56,849 nucleotides of DNA from assembly GCA_964386805.1 (NCBI GenBank), contig CAYLUJ010000001.1, forward strand, positions 1-56,849, written 5' to 3'. The DNA is from an uncultured Pelolinea sp. (GTDB lineage: Bacteria > Chloroflexota > Anaerolineae > Anaerolineales > Anaerolineaceae). The notes under the pieces are model-generated. The model searched no databases and had not been told where the DNA came from. It worked only from the letters and a program-made list of their open reading frames with translations. The position numbers and the translations under genes were made by a program. Numbering within the stretch: the stretch's first letter is position 1; every line of letters begins with the position of its first letter. Below are positions 30,350 to 51,499 of this stretch, one piece after another.

Positions 30350-30574
30350 ATCGTCCTCCCGATAATTCCCCCAAGTATATCAAATGCAGCCCCGATCTGG
30401 AATCATTGATCGCGAAACTATCTGTTTTCCTGTATACTTATTTCTTTGTTGTTCGGCAACAGAATGATCCTTTAAAATTATTTATTACGAAAGTAAAAAA
30501 GCCATCCAATTTTTTGGATGGCTTTTAAGGCGGCATTGGTCGAATTTTGTTTTATTTTAGGTTGCCTCTTTTAG

Positions 30575-30697
30575 TAAAAAGAAACCGGTTTTTTATGACC
30601 GGTTTCGCTATTCGCTCCCTGAGATTGTTGCAAAGGGATAAGTTACTACCCTCCCAAAGCGACCAAGTTCAAACCGCAGTTCAACGCTTCCAATACT
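30575..30697 (-). ncRNA. Unclassified structured-RNA candidate, copy 1 (paralog of 40137-40267), ending in an intrinsic terminator
   Basis: Minus strand: AGTATTGG...TTGGTCGCTTTGGGAGGGTA-loop-TATCCCTTTG...AGGGAGCGAATAGCGAAACCGGTCA, then terminator AAACCGGT-(8 nt)-ACCGGTTT + CTTTTT (30576-30605). Shares long identical blocks with copy 2. Confidence 0.5.
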
Positions 30698-30815: not shown

Positions 30816-31691
30816 TTATTTTTTCTCTTCCCCCTTATCAGTATTCATTTGCGTGTAAGAGACCATTTCTTTTTCAGAGTTCACGGCAAATTCGAGGGCA
30901 GCTTGAGCGCGGGAAACGATCTTCTCAACCGATACTGCATCGATGGGGAAACTGGCTATACCTGCATATACCGAAGCATTTACTTGCTGAGCAGCGCCCT
31001 GGACAACCCGCCCTGCTGCAATCTTTGCTTCTTCATCGGATGTATCGGGCAATATCATACCTAAGGTTTCTTGATCAAAACGCGATACAACATCTAATGT
31101 TCGCAGAATTTTTTTACAAACCTTGGCAGTGGCTTCCATTAATTCTTCAGCACGTTCCGGATGACCCTCACTGACAAGGTTTTTATAGTTGAACACGCGC
31201 ATCATCATTACACTAACTGGCTTTTTTGTTCTTCTGCTGCGGATAAATTCTTCACCCAGTTTCTGCTGGAATAATTTCCATTTTAACAAACCATACGCGT
31301 CATGCAGGGTAAGTTCCTCAATGAGAACATTATTGGAGACATATTGATTAATAAAATGTGCGATTTGGGCATGCACACTTTTTGAAAGAATGGTGGAGAT
31401 TAGCAGAGCAGCAGCAAATACACCTATCCGGATCAATAACTGCATCATTTGTTCTTGAAAAGTATATTGGACGTATCCATACGCTAGAATGCTAACAACC
31501 AATGCAATCCAATCCATCCAACGATTGAACCTAAAGATTGTCAGAACAACGACAAAAGCCAGCAAGGAAAGACCCAGAAAAACAGTCGTTTCATCCACAA
31601 ACACGATCATTCCTGCGCTAATGATCAGCCCCACCGTTAATAGCACGACATACAGCAATAATCTGTTTTGAGAAATATTTTTATTAATCAT
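30816..31691 (-). CDS. PelD-like membrane protein: 4 TM segments plus a degenerate GGDEF domain retaining an RxxD I-site
   Basis: GGDEF-fold landmarks are present (DAYGLL..., ...SEGHPERAEE..., VYAGIASFP, ...RAQAALEFA). The active site reads DQETL (31062-31076) instead of GG[DE]EF, and the metal-binding Asp is lost (MMMRVF). RTLD (31092-31103) lies exactly 5 residues upstream, as in canonical I-sites. Confidence 0.7.
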   Translation of the reverse strand: MINKNISQNRLLLYVVLLTVGLIISAGMIVFVDETTVFLGLSLLAFVVVLTIFRFNRWMDWIALVVSILAYGYVQYTFQEQMMQLLIRIGVFAAALLISTILSKSVHAQIAHFINQYVSNNVLIEELTLHDAYGLLKWKLFQQKLGEEFIRSRRTKKPVSVMMMRVFNYKNLVSEGHPERAEELMEATAKVCKKILRTLDVVSRFDQETLGMILPDTSDEEAKIAAGRVVQGAAQQVNASVYAGIASFPIDAVSVEKIVSRAQAALEFAVNSEKEMVSYTQMNTDKGEEKK

Positions 31692-33870
31692 GCTTCCTCG
31701 CTTTCCGCTTTTTCACTATTTCGTCAATTACTTTTCCAACAATCACTCCAACTGTAACCACAGCAAAAACGATGCCAATCCATAGAGCAAGATTGTTTTC
31801 TTCTTTTTGAGGTTGCACCGGCAGTTCTTCTGCCGCAGGTACCAATTCTTCCATGTTTTGAATCAACGCAGATGAAATAGAGCCTTCTGCACGGGTAAGA
31901 GCAAGATCGCCATATAAGTTTTTAATATTAGTGGAATCCATTAATGCATCAATCGCCCACGCTATCCCTTTATCTGTAGTGCCAGTGGCAATCAATACAG
32001 GATATCCTTCATTGATCAATGCCTCTAGGTAACCAATATCTGCATTAATTGTATTTGTCTGAACAATATCAGTCTGGGTAACAGGATTATTGGTACCCTC
32101 TTCAAAAGGTTGCGGAAGATGGTCGTTCAGTTTAACAATCTCGCTGTTTTGCGTTGGTATTCCGATCAACATGAAATGGGTTGGTTTCTCAGAAAGCGCA
32201 GCCAATTCAGCGGGTGTATAAACCTGCAGGTCAATCCCATCGCTGTTGAGATAATGCCCTAGAAATTCACTGAGTTTGATCACTAATTCATTGACGGTCT
32301 GATTGGATTCATCGGGAAGAATCACACCGAAATCAGAGAGATCAGAACTACCAATGAATGCATACGGGAATTCGTTGATTGAGAGTACTTCAGTGGAAGG
32401 TCCTAAGGGCACCGTCAGTTCCGTATCCGCATAAACCACAATCCAGGCAGCCGTTGTATTGTCATCCAGACAGTCAAACCGATCATCCTGGTAAGCATCC
32501 GGCAGGTTGATGTTACTGACGACCGTAATCCTGTTATCTCCAAAATCAAATAGCCGTGCTGGGAGTACGAGGTCTGCCCAGGCATCATTGGCATTTTCGC
32601 TGGTCAAGGATACCGTTCCAGCAGGTGTACCATTTACTTGGATAGTCAGATAAGATTCTTCCAAATTTGCAAAATCTGTATGAGCAAAATGCAATCGCAT
32701 GGTCACATCACCGATGACTTTCCAAGAAGTTGCGAACGGCAAAGCATAGCTGATGGATTGTTCAGAGGTTCCCCAGGCGGTGACATCCTTATATTCATAC
32801 TTTTCAAGGGTAAAAGTGGAGGTGAATGTCTCCTGGGTTGAAACAGAGTCAGGCACCTGGTTTATCAACGCCAGGTTATCGGGGAGTTGCTCCAAGATGG
32901 AATCCCGGGTGAGTGCCCTGGCTGCTTCAACAATCGCCGAATCGGTATCCCCGGTCACAACCAGAATAGATTGTTTCGCATCTGCAAAGAATTGCCCACT
33001 CCATAGAATCCCTGTATTTCCGGGGTAAGCACTGCCATTCTTTTCCTTCAGCTTACCATTTTCCCAAACCCAGGGAGCTTGTAGGTCATTGAGAATTGCC
33101 AGTTGATCCGCACGCCCGACAAGAATGATGTTTCCTTCCAAACTGCCTGGATTCGCCATGGCATCTGTTTCAGTTGCGAAGTTAAGATTAACCGTCCGCC
33201 AGCTTGCAAATTGACCAAGTTTCGCACTAACCAGTGCAGCCGCATTGATTTCAGCAGACGTTGGAATATCCGGCAGAACAAAGGTTACCCTATTCTCTAG
33301 AATTCCGGAATTACTGACAAAGGGAAGGGGAAATTTATTAAGTACCGGGGCTGCATCCTTCATTCGATACTGAAATGTGAAATATGAACTGTCATGAACG
33401 GTAAACCACAATAAATCCTCATCCAAATTCAAGCAATCGAAGCCTTCATATCCCAGATATAAAACCAAGCGCACACGGTTATACCCCTCAACCCACAATT
33501 CGCTTGGAATTTCAACTTTCAATTCCCCAAGGTCGCTATTGGCACTGGTGAGCCCCGTGCTGGCAATTCGCGTTCCATTGACTTCAACAGCTATAGATGA
33601 TTTTTCGCTGAGAGCTTTAGCGTGGCTGAACACCAGTGTCAGAGTACTGCCGGTCTGTGGTTCCCAGGCAGAAGGCCACTGAAAACCATACTCTTTGATA
33701 GTATTGATCCCTTTAAAAGAATCATCACTGGATAGAATCCCCAGATCTTGAAACGTATAGGTATTGTCCTGGTCTTGAACAATTTCAGTGGGAGCAGCCG
33801 CAAAGCTGCATAAAAATGTCAAGAGGATCAAGACACTTTTTATGAACTTTCCATTCATTTTATTTTTCAT
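31684..33870 (-). CDS. BcsB-like periplasmic/extracytoplasmic synthase partner with signal peptide and C-terminal TM anchor
   Basis: 728 aa. N-terminal signal (KSVLILLTFLCSFAAAP). Duplicated module pattern (LTLVFSHAKALSEKSSIAVEVNGTRIAS / MRLHFAHTDFANLEESYLTIQVNGTPAGTV) as in cellulose synthase subunit B. C-terminal TM plus KKRKARK tail. Confidence 0.6.
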   Translation of the reverse strand: MKNKMNGKFIKSVLILLTFLCSFAAAPTEIVQDQDNTYTFQDLGILSSDDSFKGINTIKEYGFQWPSAWEPQTGSTLTLVFSHAKALSEKSSIAVEVNGTRIASTGLTSANSDLGELKVEIPSELWVEGYNRVRLVLYLGYEGFDCLNLDEDLLWFTVHDSSYFTFQYRMKDAAPVLNKFPLPFVSNSGILENRVTFVLPDIPTSAEINAAALVSAKLGQFASWRTVNLNFATETDAMANPGSLEGNIILVGRADQLAILNDLQAPWVWENGKLKEKNGSAYPGNTGILWSGQFFADAKQSILVVTGDTDSAIVEAARALTRDSILEQLPDNLALINQVPDSVSTQETFTSTFTLEKYEYKDVTAWGTSEQSISYALPFATSWKVIGDVTMRLHFAHTDFANLEESYLTIQVNGTPAGTVSLTSENANDAWADLVLPARLFDFGDNRITVVSNINLPDAYQDDRFDCLDDNTTAAWIVVYADTELTVPLGPSTEVLSINEFPYAFIGSSDLSDFGVILPDESNQTVNELVIKLSEFLGHYLNSDGIDLQVYTPAELAALSEKPTHFMLIGIPTQNSEIVKLNDHLPQPFEEGTNNPVTQTDIVQTNTINADIGYLEALINEGYPVLIATGTTDKGIAWAIDALMDSTNIKNLYGDLALTRAEGSISSALIQNMEELVPAAEELPVQPQKEENNLALWIGIVFAVVTVGVIVGKVIDEIVKKRKARKHD

Positions 33871-33880
33871 GCTTCACTCC

Positions 33881-35590
33881 TTAGTTCCCGGCTTTAGCAT
33901 TATCGTTAATTGTAAATAATCTCCATGGTAATGGAGAGGGAAACTCATATTTAAATGTTGTCCATGTTTCAAAACCTTCATAAATACCTGGGTAATATTT
34001 CAATACCTGTGATCTCCCGCGCGCATCAAATGAAGGATACGGAACCAAAATCTGATCAGCTTTTCCGATAGGGTTTCTCAAGATGTCAAAAAAGTCCATA
34101 TCGGTGGTCATTACGAGATTTTTGGGGTGGTCAACCATAAGTGCCAACGACATGGATATGGAATGATCAACGATTGTAATCGTATCATCCAGTTGTGCGT
34201 TGAGATAATCAGCAATCATCTGCATCTCCTCCAGTGAATCATTCTCATACGATACCGATTGTTGTTCACCGGCGATAATCCAGGCTAGCAGTATTTTTTG
34301 TGGCATGGGAGCTTCGATAAGATCCCACTTTTTACTTACCTGACTGACGATTGGGAATATCAATAACTCTACCAGTAATAAATTTACTACCAAACGGGCC
34401 CATTTCTTTTCCAATGAGGAATATACCGCTCCCATGACAATAATTCCTCCCGGGATCAGCCAAATAAAATAGCGGCTGAAAGCCGGCAGATAACCCCGAT
34501 AACCGATCAGGAAAGTGAATAAAATAATAGACCAACCCAGCATGACAAAATCGAAATCAATCCAGCGTTTTTTTATAAAAATTAGCAACAGTAAAACAAT
34601 GGTTGCAACAGCTAAAAGAGGTCCAACAAAAGTGATTTCTGAAAACAGCAGTCTAAAAGAACCACTGATGGAATTCATAGCATAGTACCAGAGATGATCA
34701 GGTCCAAAGGTTTGAGCAGTATCAGGGGTATTGGATGTCGCTCCGGGGCCGGTCAGAAAGTAAACAGGGTTGCCCATGATCGTCCAGTTGAGGAAAACCC
34801 AAAACAGGAAACCATAAGCTGGGGGCACAAGGTAAGATAAAAGATCAGCCTCCAATTTTTCCGGCGATGTTTTTCCTTTTCCGAAAAGCCAGCTCCAGCA
34901 AATACAGGCTGCCATGACCGCCGTCCAAGCAAGCGCTTCATAACGGCAGTATACTGCCAACCAGGCGCCGATGCCTGCCATCATGATTCCAGAATTTTTT
35001 CGCTCCTGATGCCAGGTTAGATACCCATTAAAAGAGAACAGTAGAAATCCGATGAAGGGAGTCTCCGACATGCCCAGAGCTGCATTATGCAGAATAAGTG
35101 GTTGCAGACCAAATAAAACCATCCAGACAATGCGCCATCCGCTTTCTACTTTAAAGCGTTTCAAAACATTGTTTAGCTGCACCATCGTGAACCCGGCATA
35201 GATAGCACTCATCAACGTGCCACTCAATATTTCCAAACGAAATGGCCGCAAGAGGATATTAAAAGGAATATCAGATACTGCTGGAAGCGGAGGCCAAATA
35301 AATCCGATCGCCGAAAGGTGTGGATCGCGTCCAAAGACAGCAGAAAAAGCTTGAGAAACCCGCGACAATCCTTCATAATCCGAGATATCGTAGATCAGAG
35401 TTCCATAAATCCCAATGATTGCGTAAAAAAAGAAAGCAATAAGAAAGATATGTGTTGAAGGATGCTTCATTAAATGAATAAAGCTTTCTCGAATATGCAG
35501 TTTCCTTTTCGTCTCAGGGGCATATTCGGGTGGTTTTGATGCAATGGACGGTGCAGGATTAACGCTATTGAACATGGCTGCCATCCACAT
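33881..35590 (-). CDS. Polytopic GT-C-fold-like (ArnT/PMT-like) membrane protein with C-terminal soluble domain
   Basis: About 12 TM segments, an acidic first loop (YDISDYEG) and a ~170-aa C-terminal non-membrane domain. The start is ambiguous (Met codons at 35590, 35584, 35575) and overlaps the synthase stop at 35565. Confidence 0.45.
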   Translation of the reverse strand: MWMAAMFNSVNPAPSIASKPPEYAPETKRKLHIRESFIHLMKHPSTHIFLIAFFFYAIIGIYGTLIYDISDYEGLSRVSQAFSAVFGRDPHLSAIGFIWPPLPAVSDIPFNILLRPFRLEILSGTLMSAIYAGFTMVQLNNVLKRFKVESGWRIVWMVLFGLQPLILHNAALGMSETPFIGFLLFSFNGYLTWHQERKNSGIMMAGIGAWLAVYCRYEALAWTAVMAACICWSWLFGKGKTSPEKLEADLLSYLVPPAYGFLFWVFLNWTIMGNPVYFLTGPGATSNTPDTAQTFGPDHLWYYAMNSISGSFRLLFSEITFVGPLLAVATIVLLLLIFIKKRWIDFDFVMLGWSIILFTFLIGYRGYLPAFSRYFIWLIPGGIIVMGAVYSSLEKKWARLVVNLLLVELLIFPIVSQVSKKWDLIEAPMPQKILLAWIIAGEQQSVSYENDSLEEMQMIADYLNAQLDDTITIVDHSISMSLALMVDHPKNLVMTTDMDFFDILRNPIGKADQILVPYPSFDARGRSQVLKYYPGIYEGFETWTTFKYEFPSPLPWRLFTINDNAKAGN

Positions 35591-38500
35591 GTGATTCTGA
35601 TTCCTTTTCAAGTTCCATACCAAAACCCTGGCTAAAACCATGAATGGTCTTTTCCCAATAATGTGGTTTTGTTATCAACTGTAAAAAACCTTTCCAGGCA
35701 CCAATACTCATTAAACCCCAATAAATTGGACTTAGCAGCGCAAAACGCACGTTATCGTAATGCCTGCGGCGCATGGCTCCGGCTATGTTCATATAAGTAA
35801 ACACAAAATTTCCAAGATAAAGGCTAAGCGAACTCAAATAAAAAATAAAACCGGGGAATGTCTCTTGTATAAATGCCCATTTCGTCAAATACCAAACCGT
35901 TGTAATCGTCCATAATATCGGATTGACCAAGGCAGCAAAGAATGTGCCACCTGTAACGAATTGAAAACTGATGAATCCCTTGAATCCCACTTCTTTCAGT
36001 AATTCCGCGGGGTTGCGCATGTGCACCAGCCAAGTTTGGATATATCCTTTTATCCAACGAGAACGCTGCCGCAACCAGTTATTGAGCCGGCTGTTGGCTT
36101 CTTCATACGTTGTCGAATCGATGGTGCGCGTATGGAAACCGCGTTTATAGAGTCGCATGCCCAGGTCAGCATCTTCGGTAACATTGTGAGGATCCCAGGC
36201 ACCCACCTCAACCAATGCGCGGCGTTTGAAATGATTGGAAGTACCACCCAGGGGAATGGGGGCATCAGAAGCATCCAACCCGGGCAGAAACAGGTCAAAC
36301 CACATCGAGTATTCTGAGGTAAACCATTGTGTTAGCAGGTTTTGGCGGCGGTTGTAATAGTTCAATTTTGCCTGGATGCATACCACATTAGGACTCGATT
36401 TCCGAAATGCAACAACTGCTTTTTTAAGCTGATCAGGGTCCGGGCGGTCTTCTGCATCGAAAATAACAACATACTCACCACGCGCGTGGATAAGACCATA
36501 GTTGCATGCCTTGGGTTTTGTTTTCGGTAATGAACCAGGCACAATTGTTGCGCGAAAATGAGGGGGAAGCTTTAAATCATAAAAACTCTGAATTGTTTCT
36601 TTATCTTCTGCTTCCAGTAAAATTTTTATATCTAATTTCGTACTCGGATAATCCAGGTGAGTCAATGACTTCATAAGTTCCGGTAGAACGCCTGCTTCGT
36701 TAAATACAGGAATTAACAGGGTGTATACAGGTAAATCTCTTGGATCAAGAGCATCCATTTCGGCTTGTGATACAGGGACTTCACAATCGTGGTTCATGGC
36801 ATTATAAACAAGATAGAATTTGTAAGCAGAAAAACCAATATAAAAAATCGTGATCAATTCATTGGCAATGATCGCAAAAGATGTAAAGTTCAAGACCATT
36901 AGTACTAAGGAAAGAACCAACAAAGCTGAGAAGAAAATGGTCTGCCCTGTACTCAACACATGGAACGCAGATTCTCTGGGGGAGCGAGTCAATAAATTGG
37001 ATGTGCTAATAGTGGTGTAATCACCATGATAAATTTGTTCCAAAGCTTTTTCAAGATTGGCTTCTGAAGTGACCACCGGGTGAATTTTTTTGCCGGTTAT
37101 TTCATGCGCTTTCTCAATGCCCTTTTCATCAAAGGGATCCACGATTGCCAACGTCAGATCAGTTTTCGTCACTTTAATGGGAAGAATTCCAAACTCGCGT
37201 TCTATTTCAGAATCGATTAACCGGGCAGTATCCTCCTGTATTGATGTCTTTTCCAGATCAATAAAACGTAATTTAGCCTGTTGGGCTAAAACTTCATACA
37301 TCTGATCTTCTTGAATATATTGTTTGATTAACAATGCCTGCCCCAGACGTACCCCTGTTTTCTTCGACAATTCCAATGCTTCATTTAACTGACGGCGTGT
37401 AATATAACTGTTTTCCAATAAATATGTACCAATGTTTTTCCGACCCAAAGTTCTCGCAATTGCATCTTCCAGGTCCGCTCGCATGACAAGCACTGGTTGA
37501 ATAGGAAGGGGAAAGTGTTCCTTTAAAAAATCAAGGTTTTGAGTATGTAATGGGTCAGCAAAGGCCATAATAATTTGTTGATTTTCTCTTCGAACAGGCA
37601 ACATACAATATCGATTGGCAGCCGCAAGATCGATCATCCCTGCCACGCCCAGATTCACCGGATCACGATAGATTGTCTTGGTAATCTTATTTCCAAGTCC
37701 ATCAAATTGCTCTGCCTGTTCTTCGATCAGGTTAATATTGTAAACAGGGACAGAAAAAACAGACGCCAGAATTTGATTTGCTTGACGTGCATCATAATAA
37801 CCCGCCTGGGTGAAAGCCCTATCAAAGGGAAGAGCGCCCGCATCCATCAGCTGGATCATCTGATAAGCTTGTGATTGGGTCAGATAATCAGAGTGAATTA
37901 ATTTTTGGATATATCCATGTGCTTCATCAGACACTTCATGACGTTCCGTTCCCCAACTTTGTTCAATAATCGCCCGGAGAACCTTTTTCGGAGTAATGAC
38001 CGGCACAACCTGCATCCTGAGCTTCTTCTTTAATTCATGGAATCCTTTTCCATTAAAGGGGTCAGAAGTAGCAATCCAGACATGATCATCTTTTAAGATT
38101 AATGGCAGTAGTTGATATTTTTCAGCCAGTTCTTTTGGAAATTCATTGAGAAGTTCTTGCTGAAGATTGGCATGTTCCAGGGAAACAAATGGAAGACTCG
38201 TTTGAATACTTCGAGAAATAGCCAAATCAATGTCGTCCAAATAACCCCGTTCTAGCAGTAATTCACTCAACCGCTGATCCTCAATGTCATCAGTACCTAC
38301 CACTTCTTGAAGCTGCTCAACAGAGATAAGGCCTAAGGTAAGCAGGGTTTCTTTCAAAGAAACGAACCGGGAGGCTGCTATTTTAGGATTCTCAAATGGA
38401 TAGAACATGTCCATCCAAATTTGCAGTTTCTGGCGGTCAATTAAATAAGGTTTTACTCTTTTATGAGTTAAAGCTTGAACCAATTTGACTTTTTCTTGTG

Positions 38501-39527
38501 AGATATCATTCCCCGCTAGCGAGATTGTGCTGTCAGTTCCATCGAATGCAATAATTTTTAACTGTCTGGCTATTCCTGATGGGATAGTTTCCACCCATTT
38601 TTCTTGGGGTTTTCGTTCAGCATCCAGGATTGGTATCTTGGTAAGCAGCGATTCAACCTCAAGTAACATTTCATGCGTGATGATTTTCAGATCCAAAAGT
38701 GCTGCGATAAGATCGGTGCGATATTGGCTACTGTAAATGTTTGCCCTCTGTAAATCAGACCTATCGAGTGAAAAACGCTCTTGAAAAATCGTAACCTTAT
38801 CTTCATTTGTGATTTGATGCGGTTTTTCACCCTCAAGGTAGATTGTGCGGAAAATCTTTCTCCATTGTTTTTCAGCGCACAACACTGGCTGTATATCAAA
38901 TGAAAAAAATGATTGAAGACTTGAAATATCATCGGGTAATGCGGAAGCGTTGCAACCCAGATATAGCCGATTTCCAATCCACCACAAGGGAATTACTTGA
39001 TGTCTTTCTGCTTCTTTTAATGGAATGAGCGTAGCCAGAACTTTTTCAATGACAACCATATTGAGATCAATATGGGGAATCTGATGTTGAACACCCAAGA
39101 TTTCAAGATGGATGTTCTCTTCTGAATTTAAATTCTGCAAACTTCGTTGCTCTTCTTCTGCAGACTGCTGCTCTCCACTCAACTCCGCTATTGCTTTTTC
39201 CCCGCTGTGTAATACATCTTGGATTGTTGATGCATTTACCTTCGGAAGGATGAATTTTTTACTTTCGTATAATTGGTTTTGGAAAGTTTGAATTTGCGCA
39301 TATGTTAATAAATATGGCAATACAGGTTTTTTAATGAATCTTTCGATTTCTTCTGTTTTGTCAAAGTTGATCTCCGCAGTGCCAATACAGTAATTATCAT
39401 TTTCCGTCCACAAAGGAACCACATCGAATTTTCTTGAAATATCCTCTGGAATTCCCGGATATGCATTCGTTGGTTTAAATTGTGTCGAAAGCTGTTGATA
39501 AAACCTGTTTTTAATACTCATCATCAA
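35565..39527 (-). CDS. Giant (1320-aa) processive family-2 glycosyltransferase with an N-terminal array of GspE-N/MshEN-type domains
   Basis: GT2 core is aa ~933-1165: LIPVFNE, DAED (1024-1027), TED (1117-1119), QRSRW (1154-1158), flanked by TM segments. Aa 1-850 carry about six repeats of the T2SS-E N-terminal pattern (hydrophobic-PL...hydrophobic stretch-DP...), two of which have full bipartite MshEN motifs. No ATPase Walker motifs. Confidence 0.85.
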   Translation of the reverse strand: MMMSIKNRFYQQLSTQFKPTNAYPGIPEDISRKFDVVPLWTENDNYCIGTAEINFDKTEEIERFIKKPVLPYLLTYAQIQTFQNQLYESKKFILPKVNASTIQDVLHSGEKAIAELSGEQQSAEEEQRSLQNLNSEENIHLEILGVQHQIPHIDLNMVVIEKVLATLIPLKEAERHQVIPLWWIGNRLYLGCNASALPDDISSLQSFFSFDIQPVLCAEKQWRKIFRTIYLEGEKPHQITNEDKVTIFQERFSLDRSDLQRANIYSSQYRTDLIAALLDLKIITHEMLLEVESLLTKIPILDAERKPQEKWVETIPSGIARQLKIIAFDGTDSTISLAGNDISQEKVKLVQALTHKRVKPYLIDRQKLQIWMDMFYPFENPKIAASRFVSLKETLLTLGLISVEQLQEVVGTDDIEDQRLSELLLERGYLDDIDLAISRSIQTSLPFVSLEHANLQQELLNEFPKELAEKYQLLPLILKDDHVWIATSDPFNGKGFHELKKKLRMQVVPVITPKKVLRAIIEQSWGTERHEVSDEAHGYIQKLIHSDYLTQSQAYQMIQLMDAGALPFDRAFTQAGYYDARQANQILASVFSVPVYNINLIEEQAEQFDGLGNKITKTIYRDPVNLGVAGMIDLAAANRYCMLPVRRENQQIIMAFADPLHTQNLDFLKEHFPLPIQPVLVMRADLEDAIARTLGRKNIGTYLLENSYITRRQLNEALELSKKTGVRLGQALLIKQYIQEDQMYEVLAQQAKLRFIDLEKTSIQEDTARLIDSEIEREFGILPIKVTKTDLTLAIVDPFDEKGIEKAHEITGKKIHPVVTSEANLEKALEQIYHGDYTTISTSNLLTRSPRESAFHVLSTGQTIFFSALLVLSLVLMVLNFTSFAIIANELITIFYIGFSAYKFYLVYNAMNHDCEVPVSQAEMDALDPRDLPVYTLLIPVFNEAGVLPELMKSLTHLDYPSTKLDIKILLEAEDKETIQSFYDLKLPPHFRATIVPGSLPKTKPKACNYGLIHARGEYVVIFDAEDRPDPDQLKKAVVAFRKSSPNVVCIQAKLNYYNRRQNLLTQWFTSEYSMWFDLFLPGLDASDAPIPLGGTSNHFKRRALVEVGAWDPHNVTEDADLGMRLYKRGFHTRTIDSTTYEEANSRLNNWLRQRSRWIKGYIQTWLVHMRNPAELLKEVGFKGFISFQFVTGGTFFAALVNPILWTITTVWYLTKWAFIQETFPGFIFYLSSLSLYLGNFVFTYMNIAGAMRRRHYDNVRFALLSPIYWGLMSIGAWKGFLQLITKPHYWEKTIHGFSQGFGMELEKESESHVDGSHVQ

Positions 39528-39792
39528 TATTATTAGTATCTTCGTTTTTTAAATCTTCCAAATTATTTCCAATTTCATTTTTGACAGGGAGCGTATTCTT
39601 ATTTTTGCGTAAGGAAAATAAAATACTAATATCTGAAATAGCTAAAATAATCGAAAAAACTCCGATTAGAATAATCGGAATGGTAAAATATCCTATCCAC
39701 ATGCCGAGAAATAATGTCATCATTATTCCCAGAGTAACAAGAACGCGGAATATAACTACAGTCATTAACCATGTGCGATTTTTCAGGTTCAT
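39511..39792 (-). CDS. Small 2-TM membrane protein with acidic tail; first gene of the EPS operon
   Basis: 93-aa ORF whose 3' end overlaps the synthase start by 17 nt. No clear SD. Confidence 0.5.
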   Translation of the reverse strand: MNLKNRTWLMTVVIFRVLVTLGIMMTLFLGMWIGYFTIPIILIGVFSIILAISDISILFSLRKNKNTLPVKNEIGNNLEDLKNEDTNNIDDEY

Positions 39793-49738: not shown

Positions 49739-51499
49739 TTATGATCTGTTACGGATCAAATCAAGCAGTGCCAATGCTGCGTTTTCTGGGCCCTTTTGTT
49801 CTTGCCCCGGGATGCCCAACATGGTACGAAGTTGACCGACATAAAGACCCTTTTCAAAAAAAGCGCTGAAATATCTCTCGGCAATTTCGTCATGCAAGGC
49901 TTGATATTGAACCGGTCCAAAAATATTAGCAAAATAATTTTCAACGATCCCGGTGGAAGTGGTCGTGCCTTTACTCATCACCGCCCCTCGCCGAAAAACC
50001 TTCAGGGCATCGGTGGGAGTAGTGAATTGTTCTATGGAAAGATGGTCAAAATCAACCACTTCATAATTGTTCGCATATAAAACTGCATCTACGGGAATAC
50101 CTTCGATCAGATATTCATAGCGAGTAACTGGCAAAACCACCCGTGCATTTATCTGATCTGGATTCATGATGATGGTACGGTCCATTTGACCAAATGCATA
50201 CCCGGCTTGCAGATCATCCAGGCGCACAAAGGCACCCATTTCCGTCCCATATCCCGCAATTTTGCTATCTGGTTGGAGAGAAAATGAACCCATATCATCG
50301 GCTACAATCAGTATTTCTTGAATATCGGCAGATTGAATGCGGCGTAACGCTTCGATCGTTTCCGATTTCCCTGCTCCAGAATCGCCCATAATAACCAGGG
50401 TAAAAGGATCGCCATTTTTCAAGGTTATGCGAATCATGGCACCATGGAACGGCAGCAGCCCGGTACGCATGCGTTTGATATTGTGCAGGGTCAGAATCAT
50501 CTTCTTTAAATATCCAAAGTACTCGAATTCATCCTTATTTGGAATCGAACCAATCAGACAATCATTTTCTACATCTTCATAGAAAATGGTTTCATTCCCA
50601 TTCACCTGCAGGGCAGACTCCGGTGGTACTCCATAGATGAAGATGGCATCCGGTTTGCGTTTTAGATCTTCCTCTTCCGCTAGTTCAAAAAGATTGCAGA
50701 GCGAAAAGCCCAACTCAAACAAATCAAGCGAAAAATACACCATCACCAACAGTTCACCAACTTTCGCTGGATAACAAAGCCACTCATTGGGTTGCAGGTT
50801 CAAATTCGTAAGTGGATTCTTATCCACCCTCTCAAATTGCCCAGTTCTTTTATTCATGGGTGTTTTAAAAATCATAGGGGGGTATATCAACGCTTGTCGA
50901 ATAACAAATACATCCTGCAGCACATCATAAACACCAGCAGGATAATTAATATGGTAAGGCAGTGTAATTGCTCCGACCTCTGCTCCAGCGCTCACCTGGC
51001 GGTAAATCTTGGGATGATTGCCGGTGATATTTTCCTGGATGGTACGATAAGTTGAACGGACAATATGCATGAGGCTTTCAACCAGATCATTGAAGGTTCG
51101 ATATGGCTTTTGATCAAACCGGTCAAAGACAGAATCACAAATGATGAGTCGGTGAAGAGAGCGCCAATAATTGTATAACTGCTCCACAAACTCATTGAGT
51201 AAAAAAGGATTCTTGAGAAAAGAGGTGGAACCCTCGACGATTTTTTCAACTTTTTCGGCAGGCAGACGTGAGAGATAGAATAAAACATCAATCAACGTTT
51301 CCATTGAATGACGGTCAATCTTTGAATCGGGAAAAACTTCTAATAAAGTCGATTGATGTTGTTCCAGGTTTTCCAGAAAGCGCCAGAGCACCTTTGCGAA
51401 CAATTCACTTTTTATTAATTCTTCTGAATTATTGCAAACGCGGTTCCGTACTCGTAGAACAATTTTCTCGTCGTAAAAGTGAAATGATCCGTTCTGCAT
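49739..51499 (-). CDS. Uncharacterised 586-aa protein with a C-terminal HprK/PEPCK-like P-loop kinase module
   Basis: LVIMGDSGAGKSETIEALRR...ILIVADDMGSF...GTEMGAFVRLDDL resembles the HPr kinase / PEP carboxykinase nucleotide-binding core. I do not recognise the ~330-aa N-terminal region. Confidence 0.5.
   Translation of the reverse strand: MQNGSFHFYDEKIVLRVRNRVCNNSEELIKSELFAKVLWRFLENLEQHQSTLLEVFPDSKIDRHSMETLIDVLFYLSRLPAEKVEKIVEGSTSFLKNPFLLNEFVEQLYNYWRSLHRLIICDSVFDRFDQKPYRTFNDLVESLMHIVRSTYRTIQENITGNHPKIYRQVSAGAEVGAITLPYHINYPAGVYDVLQDVFVIRQALIYPPMIFKTPMNKRTGQFERVDKNPLTNLNLQPNEWLCYPAKVGELLVMVYFSLDLFELGFSLCNLFELAEEEDLKRKPDAIFIYGVPPESALQVNGNETIFYEDVENDCLIGSIPNKDEFEYFGYLKKMILTLHNIKRMRTGLLPFHGAMIRITLKNGDPFTLVIMGDSGAGKSETIEALRRIQSADIQEILIVADDMGSFSLQPDSKIAGYGTEMGAFVRLDDLQAGYAFGQMDRTIIMNPDQINARVVLPVTRYEYLIEGIPVDAVLYANNYEVVDFDHLSIEQFTTPTDALKVFRRGAVMSKGTTTSTGIVENYFANIFGPVQYQALHDEIAERYFSAFFEKGLYVGQLRTMLGIPGQEQKGPENAALALLDLIRNRS

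Follow-up and report, generated by a model that had tools for sequence, protein, structure and literature searches.

MshEN is a widespread, high-affinity receptor domain for cyclic di-GMP (c-di-GMP), and the only characterised glycosyltransferase that it regulates is NfrB of Escherichia coli, in which c-di-GMP activates exopolysaccharide (EPS) synthesis, activation through MshEN has been shown genetically and a glycine of the domain is critical (PMC8669469). Supplementary Table 4 of Wang et al. (2016) lists the NfrB architecture (Glyco_trans_2_3-MshEN), the arrangement MshEN-Glyco_trans_2_3, for example Rsph17029_0522 of Rhodobacter sphaeroides and given for Actinobacteria, Firmicutes and Proteobacteria only, and the arrays (MshEN)2/3/4-T2SSE (PMC5013675). 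The Thermus protein PilF has three GSPII/MshEN domains, of which B and C bind c-di-GMP independently and without cooperativity, and in GSPII-A, which is non-binding, one half-motif is good and the other degenerate (PMC11731258, PMC12002112). Here we analyse a stretch of 56,849 nucleotides from an uncultured Pelolinea sp. (Anaerolineaceae, Chloroflexota; contig CAYLUJ010000001.1), the whole of which we call the window, and in particular a membrane synthase of glycosyltransferase family 2 (GT2) that is preceded by six MshEN modules. A first reading of the letters alone (the original prediction) had assigned complete c-di-GMP sites to two of these modules. Our comparisons indicate that module 6, which lies directly before the first transmembrane (TM) helix, is probably the sole module of the six with a credible and conserved c-di-GMP site, predicted to be functional.

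The synthase and its parts are listed below by window coordinates, with residue numbers of the protein; the six fragments were scanned singly with PF05157, whose gathering score is 23.1 bits.

35565..39527, minus strand: (MshEN)6-TM-GT2-TM synthase open reading frame (ORF), 1320 amino acids (from the ORF list, Pfam and the translation)
39258..39491, minus strand: module 1, residues ~13-90, MshEN C-subdomain only; PF05157 29.7 bits (residues 22-90, model positions 17-87)
38832..39251, minus strand: module 2, residues 93-232, MshEN C-subdomain; PF05157 39.2 bits (residues 148-232)
38394..38801, minus strand: module 3, residues 243-378, degenerate helical N-subdomain and C-subdomain; PF05157 21.6 bits (residues 300-378)
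37941..38366, minus strand: module 4, residues 388-529, containing module A of the original prediction; PF05157 62.2 bits (residues 444-529)
38202-38360, minus strand: module A, residues 390-442, inside module 4, an eroded c-di-GMP site
37440..37922, minus strand: module 5, residues 536-696, degenerate N-subdomain and C-subdomain; PF05157 39.2 bits (residues 631-694)
37023..37439, minus strand: module 6, residues 697-835, containing module B of the original prediction; PF05157 61.7 bits (residues 753-835)
37278-37436, minus strand: module B, residues 698-750, inside module 6, N698-I-G700 ... S721 / R727-L-G729 ... Q750
36807..36950, minus strand: two N-proximal TM helices, residues ~860-907, between the array and the GT2 domain; hydropathy peak of 2.52 at residues 869-887
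35868..36725, minus strand: GT2 catalytic domain, residues 935-1220 (PF13632, PF13641 and motifs)
35658..35987, minus strand: C-terminal membrane segment, residues ~1181-1290, about three hydrophobic helices (hydropathy and invariant residues)

The reading frame starts at a TTG codon, with ATG at codons 2 and 3, and its translation agreed with the peptides and with the nucleotide ranges of modules A and B that the original prediction had quoted. The Pfam scan of the synthase found PF05157 in six stretches (E = 1.8e-68), which bears out the proposed GspE-N/MshEN type and the six copies N-terminal of the GT2 domain, and found the GT2 families PF13632 (E = 5.2e-27), PF13641 (E = 2e-19) and PF00535 at residues ~935-1220. 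The same scan matched neither PilZ nor a T2SSE ATPase domain, the latter absence having been correctly anticipated.

PF05157 covers essentially the alpha/beta C-subdomain of MshEN; c-di-GMP is bound by the four-helix N-subdomain of 53 residues that comes before it (PMC5013675). The curated model of this bipartite site, NCBIfam NF053729 (53 positions, cutoff 38 bits), gave 56.1 bits on module 6 (residues 699-750), which passes the cutoff, and 22.5 bits on module 4 (residues 393-435), which fails it, with no match on modules 1, 2, 3 and 5. The strict published 24-residue motif matched nowhere in the synthase, and the authors' relaxed motif was matched in the whole protein by the first half of module B alone. 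When the two half-motifs were scored together in relaxed form, out of 22 and with 500 shuffles giving the chance range, module B reached 21 and module A 17, the latter score being equal to the shuffle maximum, which was attained in 3 of the 500 shuffles; the best score among modules 1, 2, 3 and 5 was 15 (module 5), within the chance range.

Alignment to Vibrio cholerae MshE (5HTL) showed that module 6 keeps the equivalents of G11 (G700), L29, R38, G40 (G729), L58 and Q61 and has N, S, S and Q where MshE has R9, G18, Q32 and G47. Against the strict consensus, motif I is mismatched at positions 1, 10 and 24 and motif II at positions 10 and 17. These deviations are of the same kind as those of NfrB (N versus P at position 1, S/Q versus Q at position 10, S versus R at position 24 of motif I), which binds c-di-GMP all the same (PMC8669469). 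Module 4 presents K392, D413, S421 and R439 at the positions of MshE G11, Q32, G40 and L58. The replacements G11L and G40I abolish c-di-GMP binding in MshE (PMC5013675), in NfrB the strongest effect comes from mutation of the equivalent G491 (PMC8669469), and in PilF the replacement Q190E, at the same glutamine position as D413, lowers affinity about 80-fold (PMC11731258, PMC12002112). Two 24-residue motifs separated by a 5-residue spacer, with glycine at position 3 of each and with conserved hydrophobic triads, as in c-di-GMP-binding MshEN_N domains, are thus found in module 6 and in none of modules 1 to 5. The claim of two complete bipartite motifs was consequently overstated, because there is one credible site, in module 6, and one eroded site, in module 4, where both glycines are replaced.

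All six modules are recognised by a family-specific hidden Markov model (HMM) built from the homologues, at 66-99 bits. Module 3, which alone falls just under the PF05157 cutoff, reaches 82 bits with this HMM, and its N-terminal part is covered by the alignment to PilB (TIGR02538). Module 1 scores 74 bits, and its helical N-subdomain is absent from the alignment of the six modules; the N-segment of module 2 is short, acidic and poorly conserved (identity 0.39 to the homologues); module 5 carries a 21-residue insertion, and its PilB alignment starts at model position 3. In the alignments, both subdomains of the MshEN fold are represented in modules 3-5 and partly in module 2, and only the C-subdomain in module 1.

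The AlphaFold2 (AF2) model of module 6, for which the alignment consisted of the synthase's own six modules, has a mean predicted local distance difference test score (pLDDT) of 86 and a predicted template modelling score (pTM) of 0.74, and shows the two-subdomain MshEN fold, four helices followed by an alpha/beta unit. Its top Foldseek matches were the c-di-GMP-bound GSPII-B domain of PilF (9gl5, 8pdk) and the MshE-c-di-GMP complex (5htl), with E ~1e-10 and TM-scores of 0.67-0.77. The model also matched the N-terminal domain of PilB from Xanthomonas citri in complex with PilZ (7lkm) and, over the C-subdomain, the GspE-N1-GspL complexes (2bh1, 4pht), from which it follows that the MshEN fold also serves, where nucleotide is not bound, for the docking of proteins. 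A single-sequence model of residues 690-1320 had a pLDDT of 38.5 and was discarded as unusable.

Ten full-length homologues, with 97-41% identity, were found in Anaerolineaceae and Chloroflexota. The N-subdomain of module 6 is 0.85 identical to these homologues and 0.53 in the most distant of them (P0010, 41% identical), values comparable with those of the TM and GT2 region (0.86, and 0.64 in the most distant); the other MshEN segments have identities of 0.39-0.66, and of 0.13-0.35 in P0010. A search with residues 690-1320 that covered exhaustively 1.84 billion representative sequences returned 2592 matches at E<1e-30, and the best 150 of these, together with the ten full-length homologues and the window protein, made up a set of 161 sequences, in which six MshEN C-subdomains were counted in 20 sequences, five in 5 and four in 9. 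Where a relative has four or more modules, the site next to the GT2 domain keeps both glycines in 31 of 32 proteins and the terminal glutamine in 32 of 32; the module-4-type site has both glycines in 3 of 21 and is eroded in the other 18. The three relatives that keep both critical glycines in the module-4-type site (P0009, P0012 and P0029) keep them in the proximal site as well.

When each module was compared with the modules of other proteins, its best match was to its own position in 166 of 182 comparisons for module 6, 157 of 181 for module 5 and 109 of 181 for module 4 (73-166 of ~180 over all modules), and the modules of one protein are only 16-33% identical to each other. This positional orthology and the low identity between modules argue that the array is ancient and that each position has been maintained individually, and they rule out a recent tandem duplication as its origin.

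More than 594 relatives of the GT2 were found in species-representative genomes, and 80 related loci (L001-L080) from Chloroflexota, Actinomycetota and Bacillota were kept. The number of MshEN C-subdomains is one in 20 of the 22 loci of Bacillota and two in 30 of the 45 loci of Actinomycetota, with three in Gaiellales; nine of the 14 loci of Chloroflexota, those of the full-length homologues, have 4-6 copies, and the other five have 1-2. Relatives with a single MshEN, among them those of Bacillota and Actinomycetota, align only to module 6 and the GT2 domain (query residues ~696-1300), which indicates that module 6 is the ancestral sensor.

Two further observations concern these relatives. In many two-copy forms of Nocardioides, the proximal module has no clearly intact bipartite motif. 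In five loci of Paenibacillaceae, Clostridium and related Bacillota (L054, L056, L061, L073 and L080), two to three successive MshEN_N four-helix units precede a single C-subdomain, and these units have near-perfect RLG...Q motifs, as in L054, RLGDILLDLKYVTAEQLLPYISNQ-PQKG-RLGDMLLQLGYLTKEQLEKALAFQ; to judge by these motifs, multi-site sensing may occur in those lineages.

The catalytic part of the synthase has the signatures of processive membrane GT2 enzymes of the BcsA/PgaC/NfrB type, namely D1024-A-E-D1027, T1117-E-D1119 and Q1154-R-S-R-W1158, invariant in an alignment of 11 sequences, with TM helices on both sides. It is not a member of the BcsA/CelA equivalog group, scoring 76.3 bits against CelA TIGR03030 (cutoff 699) and 50.4 bits against NF008558 (cutoff 992); against PgaC and the XrtG-associated glycosyltransferases the scores were 63 and 64 bits, all of them far under the cutoffs. 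Because the enzyme is at about equal distance from CelA, PgaC and the XrtG-associated glycosyltransferases, its polymer is not predictable from the GT2 domain, a caveat that the authors of the Listeria study also gave for their GT2 (PMC4125290).

The synthase is the second gene in a tightly packed cluster of five on the minus strand (30816..39792), the other members of which are as follows.

39511..39792, minus strand: small membrane ORF, 93 amino acids, overlapping the synthase start by 17 nucleotides
33881..35641, minus strand: 586-residue multi-TM partner, divergent GT-C (PMT_2/ArnT-like) from the matches of its orthologues
31684..33870, minus strand: BcsB-like subunit, 728 amino acids (PF03170, E = 3e-51)
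30816..31691, minus strand: TM-anchored degenerate GGDEF protein, 291 amino acids (PF00990, 3.3e-14)

The 93-residue ORF has weak homologues upstream of the synthase in the Chloroflexota loci L001, L002, L003 and L006. The 586-residue partner has no Pfam match of its own, and its profile found no match among the PDB sequences even at E<=10; PMT_2 (PF13231) was nevertheless matched in 8 of its 17 orthologues (best E 5.2e-8), and the protein is thereby identified as a divergent member of the GT-C glycosyltransferases. Its gene is next to that of the synthase, or close to it, in nearly all of the 80 loci, in three phyla, and from this gene order the GT2 and GT-C proteins appear to form a conserved, uncharacterised pair. 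A second ORF of 586 amino acids in the window (49739..51499, minus strand), which has no Pfam match, is not a paralogue of this partner (BLASTP E = 3.5), the equal length being coincidental. The BcsB-like subunit has an N-terminal signal or TM segment and a C-terminal TM anchor.

An overlap of 8 nucleotides joins the BcsB-like gene to that of the degenerate GGDEF protein. The latter protein has no GG[DE]EF motif in its 291 residues; the A-site reads DQETL, with R197-T-L-D200 (RxxD) five residues upstream and 3-4 TM helices at the N-terminus, and all nine of its Chloroflexota orthologues are without GGDEF and keep the arginine and the aspartate. A dedicated diguanylate cyclase is ruled out by this A-site and by the absence of GGDEF from every orthologue. 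The dead A-site, the upstream RxxD and the N-terminal anchor are those of the YdaK/PssE/PelD type, and the protein is a putative second c-di-GMP receptor of the operon. In Bacillus subtilis, YdaK has four TM helices and its RxxD is needed for EPS production (PMC5422440); Listeria PssE, with a dissociation constant (Kd) of 0.79 uM, is encoded next to the GT2 protein PssC and the BcsB orthologue PssD (PMC4125290). By its gene content the operon would thus be a Yda/Pss-like synthase-dependent EPS system whose synthase additionally carries an MshEN sensor.

No c-di-GMP riboswitch or other Rfam family was found in the window at gathering thresholds. Just past the degenerate GGDEF gene there are two terminator-like hairpins (30497..30606, minus strand), with 9- and 13-bp stems followed by T-runs, which are suggestive of the operon end, the promoter and terminator scan of the window being at chance level overall.

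Taking the site, conservation and operon analyses together, the explanation that we consider probable is that of a processive EPS synthase gated through module 6, with modules 1-5 acting as a docking scaffold. The synthase would be the catalytic subunit of a synthase-dependent exopolysaccharide system of Anaerolineae-type Chloroflexota, its cytoplasmic N-terminus of ~855 residues being an ancient array of six MshEN modules in which module 6 would hold a four-helix c-di-GMP site comparable to those of MshE and NfrB. Binding of c-di-GMP to module 6 would switch on the adjacent GT2 domain allosterically, as the MshEN of NfrB and the PilZ of BcsA do, PilZ being a domain that the phylum is reported to lack. 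Modules 1-5 would have lost the site, of which module 4 keeps a recognisable remnant, and yet they hold fixed positions; most likely they would serve protein docking or scaffolding, for which candidate targets are the YdaK-like receptor of the operon, diguanylate cyclases and other copies of the synthase. The polymer would be handled by the BcsB-like subunit, and its extracellular modification by the GT-C partner is probable. MshEN domains that bind no ligand and yet serve docking or another function have precedents in GSPII-A of PilF, PilB-N of X. citri with PilZ (7lkm) and GspE-N1 with GspL (2bh1, 4pht). We would extend this explanation only tentatively, and with considerable doubt, to a docking rail formed by the five degenerate modules for a local c-di-GMP hub (the YdaK-like receptor and/or diguanylate cyclases), with the synthase integrating two inputs and the expansion from one to two to six modules tracking hub complexity in PilZ-less filamentous Chloroflexota; the likeness here is to X. 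citri, whose non-binding PilB MshEN recruits PilZ-FimX.

Several points weigh against gating by module 6 alone. This module is without the arginine at position 1 and the glutamine at position 24 of motif I and without the glycine at position 10 of both halves. Given its score of 17/22 and its 22.5 bits, module 4 may bind c-di-GMP weakly. A two-site ancestral sensor may have existed, because P0009, P0012 and P0029 keep the module-4 glycines, in which case the second site may have been lost in most lineages, that of the window included. Docking by modules 1-5 is purely what we infer, and c-di-GMP could in fact, or even exclusively, act through the degenerate GGDEF protein.

A rival reading is the multivalent sensing suggested by the original prediction, in which modules 4 and 6, and perhaps others, would bind c-di-GMP with different affinities and give a graded or cooperative response. 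The bipartite pattern of module 4 is indeed recognisable, with an exact 5-residue spacer, a sub-threshold match to NF053729 and both glycines in three relatives. However, we judge this reading unlikely, since K392 and S421 stand at glycines essential in MshE, the equivalent G491 being critical in NfrB, D413 and R439 occupy the positions of the glutamine and of L58, and the site is eroded in most of the relatives compared; PilF, moreover, binds without cooperativity, and its GSPII-A domain, in which only one half-motif is good, does not bind at all. With one credible site of six, and proximal glycines conserved in 31/32 versus 3/21 for module 4, multivalent or cooperative sensing is not sustained, whereas scaffolding, which had been offered as its alternative, is a better fit with five degenerate but positionally conserved modules.

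Scaffolding could be taken further, to an array that senses no c-di-GMP and is a structural or interaction platform throughout, the signal entering only via the YdaK/PssE-like protein, which would then activate the synthase. The degenerate GGDEF protein would suit such a role, being TM-anchored, co-transcribed and conserved in nine Chloroflexota loci and having its RxxD five residues before a dead A-site; such a receptor suffices for EPS control in B. subtilis (YdaK) and Listeria (PssE), and both half-motifs of module 6 are off the strict consensus. This seems quite improbable to us, for the near-invariance of the module 6 motif, whose conservation is on a par with that of the catalytic core, would be difficult to account for if no ligand were bound; module 6 also passes NF053729, and in most of the related loci (those of Actinomycetota and many of Bacillota) MshEN-GT2 is present with no degenerate GGDEF detected nearby. 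Least probable is that one or more degenerate modules bind another ligand, such as cyclic GMP-AMP (cGAMP), cyclic di-AMP (c-di-AMP) or another nucleotide, which would let the array integrate several signals. MshEN can bind cGAMP too (PMC5013675), and the distal modules are maintained by selection; against this, the hydrophobic triads and the glycines that are otherwise conserved are missing from the distal N-subdomains, module 1 being altogether without this subdomain, the distal modules showed no other conserved motif, and the identity of their N-subdomains among homologues is low (0.39-0.65).

No protein receptor for c-di-GMP other than MshEN is known in Anaerolinea thermophila, and PilZ is absent from it (PMC5013675, Supplementary Table 5), from which it follows that the synthase family probably couples c-di-GMP to exopolysaccharide in such organisms. 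This bears on how Anaerolineae form granules and biofilms in anaerobic digesters. The natural series of forms with 1, 2, 3 and 4-6 copies lends itself to the study of sensor domains that lose ligand binding and take other roles, and an MshEN sensor on the synthase together with a YdaK-like receptor in one operon raises the question of dual c-di-GMP control.

Among the closest known systems is NfrB, a c-di-GMP-activated poly-ManNAc synthase (PMC8669469, PMC8669472), with which the synthase shares a membrane GT2 of Glyco_trans_2_3 type, the pattern DxD...D-x35-QxxRW and an MshEN bipartite site that is off consensus in a similar way (non-Arg at position 1, Q at position 10). NfrB, however, has a single MshEN C-terminal of its GT2 and not six N-terminal copies, a contrast that the original prediction had drawn rightly. 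With the NfrB equivalog model NF008411 the synthase scored 118.4 bits, mostly over the MshEN part and with the domain order reversed, and so failed the cutoff of 1170. The partners are also different, NfrA/YbcH and a separate DgcJ for NfrB and the GT-C, BcsB-like and degenerate GGDEF proteins here. The MshEN-Glyco_trans_2_3 class has the same order, N-terminal MshEN followed by GT2, but its members carry one MshEN and are experimentally uncharacterised, whereas the present synthase has six and comes from Chloroflexota. A multi-copy MshEN array on a glycosyltransferase is not listed in Supplementary Table 4 of Wang et al. (PMC5013675), full-text literature searches returned no description or characterisation of a multi-MshEN glycosyltransferase or of any N-terminal MshEN-GT2, and a Leptospira c-di-GMP census has nothing on MshEN-GT2 or the LA_3751 family (PMC12943098). 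The novelty implied by the original prediction therefore holds for the multi-copy array on a glycosyltransferase and not for its components, since MshEN-GT2 fusions and MshEN arrays on ATPases had been tabulated in 2016 (PMC5013675).

As an array, the synthase resembles Thermus thermophilus PilF and the (MshEN)2-4-T2SSE proteins, in which some tandem copies bind and others are degenerate but functional; PilF is both the best PDB sequence match (6f8l) and, through GSPII-B, the best fold match. There the output is a secretion ATPase and the reported maximum is four copies, and the binding copies are two of three in PilF and, as predicted here, probably one of six in the synthase. As a gene cluster, the locus resembles B. 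subtilis YdaK-YdaLMN and Listeria PssA-E, which likewise combine a GT2 synthase with a BcsB-like subunit and a TM-anchored degenerate GGDEF protein, in which RxxD lies five residues before the A-site both in YdaK (SDERI, R202-D205) and in the window protein (DQETL, R197-D200). The Yda and Pss synthases are nevertheless without MshEN, the degenerate GGDEF protein being their only receptor, whereas here there are in addition an MshEN sensor, five further modules and a GT-C partner. With BcsA-BcsB the system shares a processive GT2 with TED and QxxRW, a BcsB subunit with a C-terminal TM anchor and, on the side of BcsA, control by c-di-GMP; BcsA is the best PDB match of the GT2 domain (4hg6, E=1.2e-10), and the synthase differs from it in having no PilZ and fewer TM helices. 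The MshEN-GT2 fusion type and partly degenerate MshEN arrays are hence already known; what is new is the presence of six copies on an EPS synthase, with one predicted live site among five maintained dead ones, and its co-occurrence with a YdaK-type receptor.

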